Assembly (NCBI RefSeq): GCF_046105845.1
Contig: NZ_CP151004.1
DNA: 64,000 nucleotides
Source: Escherichia coli
GTDB lineage: Bacteria; Pseudomonadota; Gammaproteobacteria; Enterobacterales; Enterobacteriaceae
Strand: one strand, 5' to 3'
The notes under the pieces are model-generated. The model saw only the letters and a list, made by a program, of their open reading frames with translations, had not been told where the DNA came from and ran no database searches. This document shows, in pieces, positions 16,157 to 19,100 of this stretch. Positions within the stretch are counted from its first letter, which is position 1, and each line of letters opens with the position of its first letter. The translations under genes and the position numbers were made by a program.

Positions 16157-19100
16157 ATGGCAGGGAAAGCGCATGGGAATGGCGATCGTCGGGGCGATAA
16201 CACCATATGTGGATTGGGGGATCGTTTACGTCGTCTGACCGCAGGTATTTGCCTGATAACACAAACTATTTTCCCTGTTATGGCGGCTGCCCCGACGCAT
16301 ATTAATCCTGCGCACTCGGATACTGCCGCGTCACTGATCCTGCCGAACGTTAAAACTATTCCATATACCCTGGGTGCGTTGGAATCGCCACCAACGGTCG
16401 CGGCACGCTTTGGTATCACCGTTGATGAATTACGTCGCCTGAATCAGTTCCGTACCTTTGCGCGGGGCTTTGACCATGTGCGTCAGGGCGATGAAATAGA
16501 TGTGCCCCTCATTAACAGTAACAGCCCTGAAGCGCGCAACCTGAAAGCAATGCAGATGGAGCGCGATGGCAAAGATCCGCAAATGCAGGTCGCGGAAGTG
16601 GCGCAGCAAAGCGGAACACTTTTAGCACGCGATATGGACAGCGAACAGGCGGCGAGTATGGCGCGTGGCTGGGTGGCTTCTTCTGCATCTGCGCAGGCAA
16701 CGGACTGGCTCAGTCGTTGGGGAACTGCCCGGGTATCTCTTGGTGTGGATGAAGATTTCAGCCTTAAAAGCTCGTCATTTGAATTTCTCCATCCCTGGTA
16801 CGAAACGCCGGATAACCTGGTCTTCAGCCAGCACACACTTCACCGTACGGATGATCGCACTCAAACCAACCACGGTATCGGCTGGCGTTATTTCACATCG
16901 AGCTGGATGTCTGGCGTCAATATGTTTATCGATCATGACCTGACCCGCTATCACACCCGAACCGGGATGGGCGTTGAATACTGGCGCGATTACCTGAAAC
17001 TGAGTGGCAACGGTTATCTGCGCCTCAGTAACTGGCGTAGTGCACCGGAACTCGACAATGACTATGAAGCACGTCCGGCGAACGGTTGGGATCTTCGCGC
17101 CGAAGGCTGGTTACCGGCCTGGCCGCAGCTGGGCGGCAAGGTGGTCTATGAACAATATTATGGCGATGAAGTGGCGCTGTTTGGTAAAGACGAGCGACAA
17201 AATGATCCTCACGCGATTACCGCAGGTTTGAGTTACACCCCCGTTCCCCTGATCTCCTTTAGTGCCGAGCAACGGCAGGGCAAACAGGGAGAAAACGACA
17301 CCCGAATTGGTATGGAGTTGACGTTGCAACCCGGTCATTCACTGCAAAAACAGCTCGATCCGGCTGAAGTTGCAGCACGACGCAGCCTTGTGGGCAGTCG
17401 CTATGACCTGGTCGATCGTAATAACAATATTGTCCTTGAATATCGCAAGAAAGAGCTGGTGCGGCTGACGCTGACCGATCCGTTGAAAGGCAAGCCGGGT
17501 GAGGTTAAATCGCTGGTTTCTTCCTTACAAACCAAATATGCGCTGAAAGGTTATGACATTGAAGCAGCCTCCCTGCAATCAGCGGGCGGAAAAGTAGCAG
17601 TTTCCGGCAAGGATATTCAGGTCACTATTCCTCCCTACCGATTCACGGCAATGCCTGAAACCGACAACACTTACCCGATAGCGGTTACAGCGGAAGATTC
17701 GAAAGGAAATTTCTCCCGGCGTGAAGAAAGTATGGTGGTCGTGGAAAAACCCACACTAAGCCTCACCGATTCAACGCTTTCTGTCGATCTGCAAATCCTG
17801 CTTGCTGATGGAAAATCAACCTCAACGCTGACCTATACCGCGCGAGATTCCAGCGGCAAGCCAATCCCAGGTATGACGTTAAAAACACAGGTGAAAGGTT
17901 TGCAGGATTTCGCCTTAAGCGAATGGAAAGACAACGGTAACGGAACCTATACCCAAATAGTTACCGCCGGGAAGACGTCTGGCGCGTTATCGCTGATGCC
18001 GCAATTTAACGGCGATGATATCGCTAAGACGCCAGCGCTGATTGCTATCGTGGCGAATACAGCATCCCGCGCTGACTCCACGATTGAGACAGACCAGGAT
18101 AATTACGTCGCGGGTAAGCCGATAGTCGTTAAAGTGACCCTGAGAGATGATAACGGCAACGGGGTTACCGGACGAAAAGAACTTCTCAAACAAACCGTTA
18201 AAGTTGACAACACGAAGGCTGATGCCGTTAGTGCCTGGACGGAAGAAAGTGAGGGAATTTACAAAGCAAGCTATACGGCCCATCTCATTGGCGACAAATT
18301 AACGGCCCAGCTGACGATGCCCGGCTGGCAAACCAAACATTCGGATGCGTTCAGTATTGCGGGTGATAAAGATACCGCCAAAATCGCTGCGATGCAGATC
18401 ACCGCGAATAACGCAGTTGCCAGACGCGATCACAATACCGTCGCTGTGACGGTCAGGGATGTGCATCAAAATTTACTGCAGGGACAAAATGTTACCTTCA
18501 CGGTCGTGAATGGTGCGGCGGTTTTTGCCGATCCAAATGGCGGTATTGTGACGACAGATAAAGACGGGATTGCCAGCGTTAACCTTGCCAGTGACCAGGC
18601 GGTAAACAGTCTTATCAAGGCCGAGACCAATGGCAGTAGTCAGTCTGTGGAAGTGAGCTTTATTACTGGCGATATCTCTCAGCTGACCTCCACCATCAAG
18701 ACAGACGATGTGTCATACACCGCGGGTGGCAAGATAAAAGTGTCAGTTACCCTTATGGATGAGCAGAAAAACCTGGTGAAAGGGATGGCTTCGCTGCTGG
18801 CGGGTAGCGGTGTGGTCGAGGTGAGCGGTACAGATAAAAATGAAACGGGTAACTGGAGCGAAGAGTCTGACGGCGTTTACACCACCACCCGAACCGCGAA
18901 GATTGCTGGCGATCGCCATTACGCCACGCTGAAACTATCGACATGGAGTAGCGCGCAGCAATCCGATGCGTATGCCATCCGCGAAAGCGGAGCTGTGCTG
19001 GCTTATTCCTCCATCGTTACCGACAAAACGGCCTACACCGCGGGCGGTGCGATAAAAGTTACGGTGACACTCAAGGATAGCTATGAAAACCTGGTCGGGG

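Follow-up and report, generated by a model that had tools for sequence, protein, structure and literature searches.

Comparative evidence on the start codon and the long n-region of the signal peptide of the inverse autotransporter adhesin IatC of Escherichia coli

Introduction

IatC, an inverse autotransporter (type Ve) adhesin of Escherichia coli, was named by Goh 2019 (PMC6714894), who saw the protein at the cell surface, found that it promotes biofilm and referred to a 'highly conserved signal sequence', predicted by an unstated method; passenger exposure at the surface was observed by immunofluorescence for IatC of strain SMS-3-5 (Goh 2019, PMC6714894). The gene is also known as air or eaeX. 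Together with EilA, Air (enteroaggregative immunoglobulin repeat protein) counts among the known factors of enteroaggregative E. coli (EAEC), and both are PCR typing markers in strain 042. Here, we consider the N-terminus of an iatC gene in a 64,000-nucleotide stretch of E. coli DNA (contig NZ_CP151004.1 of assembly GCF_046105845.1; hereafter the window, whose coordinates are used throughout), and ask which codon starts the protein and what kind of signal peptide precedes its mature part. A preliminary description of the window had labeled the protein an adhesin, and had read its N-terminus either as an extended signal peptide of the kind seen in some autotransporters or as the product of a wrongly placed start, with the true start at a downstream TTG.

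Signal peptides of the intimin/invasin (Int/Inv) family are known to be long, at 18-65 aa with a mean of 35, compared with 22.5 for typical Gram-negative Sec substrates, and the extra length has been put down to larger charged N-domains (Tsai 2010, PMC3008723). A distinct type of extension, termed ESPR (extended signal peptide region), is carried by about 10% of type V proteins and has been reported in at least one type Ve protein (PMC8151025). A 2021 review still described the route by which type Ve proteins are exported as undetermined (PMC8151025).

Translation start of iatC

The elements of the iatC 5' region, all on the + strand, are as follows.

16157..28729, +, iatC (air, eaeX) open reading frame, 12,573 nt, 4190 aa
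16146..16150, +, Shine-Dalgarno (SD)-like AGGGA, 6 nt before the ATG, duplex with the 16S rRNA 3' end of -4.9 kcal/mol at a spacing of 5-6 nt
16151..16153, +, in-frame TGA, two codons 5' of the ATG (translation ...RQG-stop-QMAGK)
16157..16159, +, ATG, most likely the start codon of iatC, the first start past the in-frame stop
16214..16216, +, TTG, codon 20, alternative start, disfavored, without a usable SD
16157..16234, +, extended n-region, residues 1-26, net +3
16193..16234, +, conserved part of the n-region, GDNTICGLGDRLRR, residues 13-26, common to IatC, its ortholog, YeeJ and IatD
16235..16273, +, hydrophobic core (h-region) LTAGICLITQTIF, residues 27-39, from the Kyte-Doolittle profile
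16274..16285, +, c-region PVMA, residues 40-43, with a predicted signal peptidase I site after Ala43 (between VMA and AAP)

Comparison with related genes makes ATG 16157, rather than the TTG at codon 20, the probable start of iatC. Translation from 16157 gives MAGKAHGNGDRRGDNTICGLGDRLRRLTAGICLITQTIFPVMAAAPTHINP..., identical to the N-terminal peptide quoted in the preliminary description, and the frame cannot reach further upstream because of the in-frame TGA. Before Met42, the only in-frame ATG, GTG or TTG codons are ATG1 and TTG20; a start at Met42 itself would delete the hydrophobic core. The TTG that had been placed at about 16217 is thus real, although it lies at 16214-16216.

The DNA was compared with that of an ortholog of 82% identity found in another Escherichia lineage (L004, with an intact gene for a 1454-aa protein in L096) and with the genes of two paralogs, IatD (L005) and YeeJ (L007). 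In all four lineages, an SD-preceded ATG stands exactly 19 codons before the codon-20 position, with SD duplexes of -6.0 kcal/mol in the ortholog, -6.4 in IatD and -8.6 at the MATKK start of YeeJ, and this distance is constant despite residues 2-12 being unalignable among the four proteins. Codon 20 itself varies, being TTG in IatC, TTT in the intact ortholog, CTG in IatD, ATG in YeeJ and CTG in a 60%-identical protein of Enterobacter ludwigii. The intact ortholog has no ATG, GTG or TTG between codon 2 and codon 33, and the latter falls inside the hydrophobic core, therefore the upstream ATG is its only viable start. Moreover, the codons for Cys18-Gly19, just upstream of codon 20, read TGT GGA, TGT GGT, TGC GGG and TGC GGC in the four lineages, which uses all four Gly codons; since the changes are confined to third positions, this segment appears to be translated under purifying selection rather than to belong to a 5' untranslated region. 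Protein-level constraint between IatC and the ortholog likewise begins at codon 13 rather than at codon 20.

Database annotation runs in the same direction: the RefSeq PGAP coding sequence starts at ATG 16157 in 9/9 records inspected, and position 1 of the NCBIfam profile NF040978 falls on residue 1. Both ATG1 and TTG20 are invariant among 10 E. coli alleles, which agrees with an ATG start and is not decisive alone. From the SD match and the pattern of conservation, both shown by the sequences, we infer that ATG 16157 is used in vivo.

Overlapping the SD there is a further ATG, at 16150 and out of frame (window 16150-16165). A database variant beginning MTNGRKAHG... (L095) has lost 1 nt from the GGG of codon 3, which brings this ATG into frame. 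We considered the variant as a natural test of the start and found it uninformative, the contig being a multiply frameshifted pseudogene.

Composition and conservation of the N-terminal extension

The polar lead M1-R26, MAGKAHGNGDRRGDNTICGLGDRLRR, holds 6 K/R and 3 D/E among its 26 residues (net +3) and is followed by the hydrophobic stretch L27-A45, LTAGICLITQTIFPVMAAA, with a mean Kyte-Doolittle value of 1.69, and by Pro46. A polar extension before a signal-peptide-like segment, as described earlier, is therefore present, although it spans 26 residues and not 30. All 9-residue windows inside residues 1-22 score 0.57 or less, and those starting at residues 26-34 score 1.27-2.12, with an uninterrupted core from L27 to F39.

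The extension falls into two parts of very different constraint. Between IatC and the ortholog, 8/11 codons for residues 2-12 differ non-synonymously, and the polymorphisms of this part within E. coli are A2V, D10N and D10E; across nine RefSeq alleles, the first 50 residues are identical or show one difference, at residue 2 or 10. By comparison, codons 13-45 show four conservative replacements amid many synonymous changes, and codons 21-45 among the 10 E. coli alleles show 0 non-synonymous and 5 synonymous changes, so that polymorphism in the h-region within E. coli is synonymous only. Residues 13-26 share the motif D-x3-hydrophobic-C-G-hydrophobic-G-x-K/R-hydrophobic-R-R in IatC, the ortholog, YeeJ and IatD. 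The hydrophobic segment is conserved in every E. coli allele inspected and in the paralogs YeeJ and IatD, and it is no chance feature. A search with residues 1-77 in 1.84 billion representative proteins recovered only IatC, the ortholog, YeeJ and IatD, so the n-region motif is restricted to this Escherichia paralog clade and is no widespread module.

Residues 12-14 (16190-16198) form an RGD tripeptide in the n-region, which is also found in the ortholog (CRGDN) and is absent from YeeJ and IatD. A role as an integrin motif is unlikely, since the tripeptide lies within a cleaved segment on the cytoplasmic side.

Alternative readings of the N-terminus

Several observations weigh against a start at ATG 16157. 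Were TTG 16214 the sole start, the 57 nt from 16157 would be 5' untranslated region and the protein would have a textbook 24-residue signal, M-GDRLRR-LTAGICLITQTIF-PVMA, of standard n/h/c proportions (n-region LGDRLRR, net +2). The evolutionary rate of residues 2-12 is close to that of non-coding DNA, so they are weakly constrained at best, and the SD at ATG1 is only moderate. YeeJ carries an ATG at the codon-20 position, and Martinez-Gil 2017 (PMC5595812) adopted it as the start, setting MG1655 YeeJ at 2340 aa rather than the automated 2358 aa and making a lacZ fusion at this internal ATG (...tgcgggATG). Published clones do not decide the question because they contain both candidate starts: in the same study, pYeeJ had its SD placed before the upstream MATKK and gave functional full-length YeeJ (PMC5595812), and Goh 2019 (PMC6714894) cloned iatC from ATG 16157 and iatD from ATG1 (primers ATGGCAGGGAAAGCGC and ATGGCTTCAACAAATGCGC, the iatC primer ending in ...GGTACCATGGCAGGGAAAGCGC), with both proteins reaching the cell surface. 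Per these clones, the sequence from ATG1 onward is export-competent, and since IatD has no canonical internal start, a precursor with the long n-region is by implication export-competent itself. The TTG is thus a legitimate candidate with a precedent in YeeJ, yet initiation there alone is quite improbable. TTG is a weak start codon and pairs with the 16S rRNA only through a GGA that abuts it (spacing 0, -2.4 kcal/mol, and +0.6 without the last 3 nt), it sits in a locally stable hairpin (-19.8 kcal/mol, vs -11.2 around ATG1), and it is neither TTG nor any other start in the intact ortholog and IatD, whereas the ATG with its SD is kept 19 codons upstream in four lineages and Cys-Gly is maintained through synonymous changes. 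Even the internal ATG of YeeJ lacks an SD (+0.4 / -2.2 kcal/mol, vs -8.6 for the MATKK ATG). Dual initiation, in which a long and a short precursor mature to one protein, would leave a functional-looking signal peptide from either start, nothing in the sequence forbids a leaky internal start, and the internal codon of YeeJ is ATG; given the missing SD and a codon not kept as a start in orthologs and paralogs, however, we regard it as unlikely, and internal initiation, if it occurs, is unlikely to be under selection.

With the ATG as the preferred start, the extended signal peptide is the better supported of the two options raised in the preliminary description, though not in the autotransporter form named there. 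An ESPR fused to a normal signal peptide might be expected of a type V secretion substrate, but this is very hard to maintain: the ESPR family PF13018 is unmatched even at E<=10 in the first 121 and the first 49 residues (Pfam, where only a sub-threshold LysM appears), the first hydrophobic domain (H1) that belongs to the conserved ~25-residue ESPR motif is lacking, as seen from the hydropathy of residues 1-22, the total of about 43 aa is less than the >50 aa of ESPR signals (PMC8151025), and Int/Inv signals are unlike ESPRs according to Tsai 2010 (PMC3008723). On the absent PF13018 match, the absent H1 domain and the length, ESPR membership was rejected at the sequence level. A signal peptide of the twin-arginine (Tat) type could account for the long n-region, for R25-R26 before the h-region, conserved in IatC, YeeJ and IatD, and for an overall length and mild mean hydrophobicity that are Tat-like. 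However, DRLRRLTAG departs from S/T-R-R-x-F-L-K, Pfam and NCBIfam yield no match to a Tat-signal model at E<=10, and many family members have a single K/R instead of RR (MRLLAW, IKLFAW, KIKVVAW). Moreover, a 4190-aa type V substrate with a beta-barrel and Ig repeats must cross the inner membrane unfolded. For its poor motif context, the lack of a model match and an RR that is not family-wide, a Tat signal was rejected as scarcely credible. A lipoprotein signal was also rejected, because Cys18 has no preceding hydrophobic core and Cys32 follows A-G-I, with Ile at -1 and no L-[AS]-[GA]-C lipobox.

Anatomy of the signal peptide and a proposed role

The residues from ATG1 to Ala43 have the composition of a Sec-type signal cleaved by signal peptidase I. 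The n-region is net +3 over residues 1-26 and net +2 over residues 20-26, the h-region is continuous, and P40-V41-M42-A43, followed by A44, supplies a helix breaker at -4 and fits the -3/-1 rule through Val41 and Ala43. Proline at +1 blocks signal peptidase I (LepB). Since Pro46 at +1 excludes cleavage between AAA and P, the site aligned with those of YeeJ and IatD, cleavage most likely occurs after Ala43, a position predicted with the -3/-1 rule applied by hand. Published YeeJ work used SignalP 4.1 (PMC5595812).

Taken together, we consider it likely that translation of iatC starts at ATG 16157 and that the first ~43 residues constitute one Sec-type, signal-peptidase-I-cleaved signal typical for inverse autotransporters, laid out as an unusually long, polar, net-positive n-region (1-26), an ordinary core (27-39) and the short c-region PVMA. 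The precursor would then cross the inner membrane unfolded via SecYEG, the LysM segment would remain periplasmic, the beta-barrel would insert in the outer membrane, and the passenger of Ig-like repeats would be exported. The extension may tune targeting or slow export, if signal extensions of other type V proteins are a guide.

Long n-regions across the family

To place IatC in its family, one genome per species was scanned, which returned 80 loci, of which 61 could be anchored on a conserved Gln of the hydrophobic segment (Gln36 in IatC, invariant in a 16-sequence family alignment). At the 61 loci, the distance from the best-SD candidate start to this Gln has a median of 27 residues, corresponding to an n-region of ~18 residues, and at 39/61 loci a short textbook n-region is impossible because no ATG, GTG or TTG occurs 10-20 residues before the Gln. 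The IatC start, 35 residues before the Gln, falls in the upper part of this distribution and is no outlier. Long n-regions are thus found family-wide.

Among 62 family N-termini from many Enterobacterales and some Pseudomonas, the consensus is [KR]xxAWxNIxxQxxFPLxxxFTPxxA, with W in 56/62, I in 52/62, the two F in 49/62 and 51/62 and P in 51/62, and with Gln and Pro near-invariant. Such a degree of conservation is unusual in signal peptides; of this consensus, only Q..FP is retained in IatC, YeeJ and IatD. Bartonella choladocola BBC0122 has at least six paralogous inverse-autotransporter genes, the N-terminal hydrophobic segments of which are unrelated to the enterobacterial consensus.

It is conceivable, if doubtful, that the n-region motif of the Escherichia clade and the hydrophobic segment of the wider family together are more than a passive Sec signal and represent a dedicated, so far undescribed targeting or timing element of inverse autotransporters. 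Such an element could, for instance, delay removal of the signal peptide or keep the precursor tethered to the inner membrane during engagement of the N-terminal barrel with the beta-barrel assembly machinery (BAM) or TAM (translocation and assembly module), and, if real, it would be a functional analogue of the ESPR with an unrelated sequence.

Gene identity and protein architecture

Two further segments of the protein were delimited.

16358..16507, +, LysM-like periplasmic segment, residues about 68-117, weak Pfam LysM match
16601..17425, +, inverse autotransporter beta-barrel (IAT_beta), residues 149-423, PF11924, E=6.4e-108

By its profile score and chromosomal site, the gene at 16157..28729 is the already known E. 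coli inverse autotransporter adhesin IatC/Air/EaeX, and the label 'adhesin' given to it earlier was correct. The equivalog-domain model NF040978 (NCBIfam) gives 3205.8 bits, above its cut-off of 2400, with profile positions 1-1065 aligned to residues 1-1065, and the gene lies between nepI and eilA. The order of parts is that of type Ve proteins, namely an N-terminal signal, a periplasmic segment, the PF11924 barrel and a C-terminal Ig-like passenger, in which Pfam finds 27-30 Big_1/Invasin_D3 repeats and, near the C-terminus, Invasin_D4 at 4010-4067 of the 4190-aa protein. The Pfam LysM match to residues about 68-117 is weak (E=0.015; 15.6 bits, under the 20.9 cut-off), and a LysM domain in IatC was described by Goh 2019 (PMC6714894). 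The first 1.5 kb of iatC is found at 95-99% identity in 750/5426 complete E. coli genomes, where RefSeq names the matching loci 'inverse autotransporter adhesin IatC' or 'EaeX/Air' and nepI is always upstream.

Positions 19610-26587 hold 24 tandem copies of a 291-bp unit (86% matches), each encoding one 97-aa Big_1 domain, and the 4190-aa length of the present allele results from these copies. RefSeq iatC alleles span 9675 to 12876 nt, and alleles of equal length exist that are only 92% identical. Several antisense open reading frames of 276-385 aa (19573-24480, - strand) lie wholly within the repeat array and are most likely shadow frames of a repetitive, G+C-rich coding region.

Two genomes assembled from metagenomes and binned as 'Collinsella sp.' and 'Bacillota bacterium' (L008, L009) contain a 99%-identical E. 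coli iatC together with a disrupted yeeJ, evidently bin contamination of the public genome collection. The intact ortholog (L096) has yicN on one side, with no nepI intervening, and on the other an eilA-like regulator, after which comes a type III secretion translocator gene.

Gene neighborhood

The neighbors of iatC are listed below.

14772..15956, +, nepI, upstream neighbor, NCBIfam NF007578 (850 bits) and RefSeq annotation
16008..16027, +, terminator-like hairpin after nepI, in a spacer of 41% G+C
28779..30476, -, eilA (HilA/EilA family regulator), convergent and downstream, NF009037 (952 bits vs a cut-off of 589)

The longest nepI frame begins at 14724; its true start is probably 14772, because the alignment to the NepI profile begins only at residue 17 and nepI in RefSeq is 1185 nt long. 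The hairpin suggests that iatC has its own promoter within the spacer; a sigma-70 consensus scan of the + strand of the nepI-iatC spacer found no site and is uninformative on the choice of start codon. In the iatC 5' region, the only Rfam matches at E<=1 were two at chance level (E=0.43), and no known RNA element overlaps. The G+C content is 35% in eilA, 56% in iatC and 50% in the window. The 49-nt spacer between the convergent iatC and eilA holds the palindrome GCCCTGCATATGCAGGGC, likely a bidirectional terminator.

Implications for annotation

The practical value of the start-codon finding, which leaves knowledge of the adhesin IatC itself unchanged, lies in annotation and construct design. 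A single YeeJ paper uses two start codons, and no fewer than three N-termini of YeeJ are found in databases. The comparison of sequences points to the upstream ATG with its SD as the start of IatC and, by extension, of YeeJ and IatD; because it favors this ATG, expression constructs, antibodies and signal predictions should include the 19-residue lead. IatC also adds one further example to the inverse autotransporters, which routinely bear long charged n-regions.

Comparison with known systems

The gene in the window is the same as the described iatC, air and eaeX (EcSMS35_4024 in SMS-3-5; air in EAEC 042), in the same nepI-iatC-eilA context. The present allele is longer, at 4190 aa with 24 tandem 97-aa repeats, compared with the range of 2459-2965 aa in Goh 2019, and its passenger is only ~92% identical to the closest complete-genome alleles, whereas the N-terminus shows no difference.

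YeeJ and IatD, both LysM-containing inverse autotransporters, follow the same layout, with an SD-preceded ATG at the distance seen in IatC, a variable 19-residue lead in which residues 2-12 are unrelated, and then hydrophobic-C-G-hydrophobic-G-x-K/R-hydrophobic-R-R-L-T-A-G-(I/V)-C-L-x-T-Q-x-x-F-P and an Ala-rich cleavage region. The Ala run is followed by Gln in YeeJ (AAA-Q) and IatD (ATA-Q) and by Pro in IatC, and owing to this replacement the IatC cleavage site is probably 1-2 residues upstream of those of YeeJ and IatD.

Like the N-terminus of IatC, the ESPR (PF13018) of classical and trimeric autotransporters and TpsA proteins is an N-terminal extension before a functional signal in a very large type V substrate. 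However, the extension of IatC has no sequence similarity to it, lacks the N1-H1-N2-H2-C organization and is shorter. By analogy, it may resemble the ESPR functionally, by modulating export kinetics.

The Int/Inv signals of Tsai 2010 (PMC3008723) are likewise tripartite and Sec-type, with their extra length in a charged N-domain and a size range that includes the ~43 aa of IatC. The extension of IatC is thus of the long charged N-domain type known for the intimin/invasin family since 2010, real but ordinary. Tsai 2010 found these signals to be little conserved in sequence, whereas in the Escherichia clade of YeeJ, IatC and IatD clear conservation is seen in the h-region and in the final 14 residues of the n-region, and the residual novelty is this clade-conserved motif inside the n-region.

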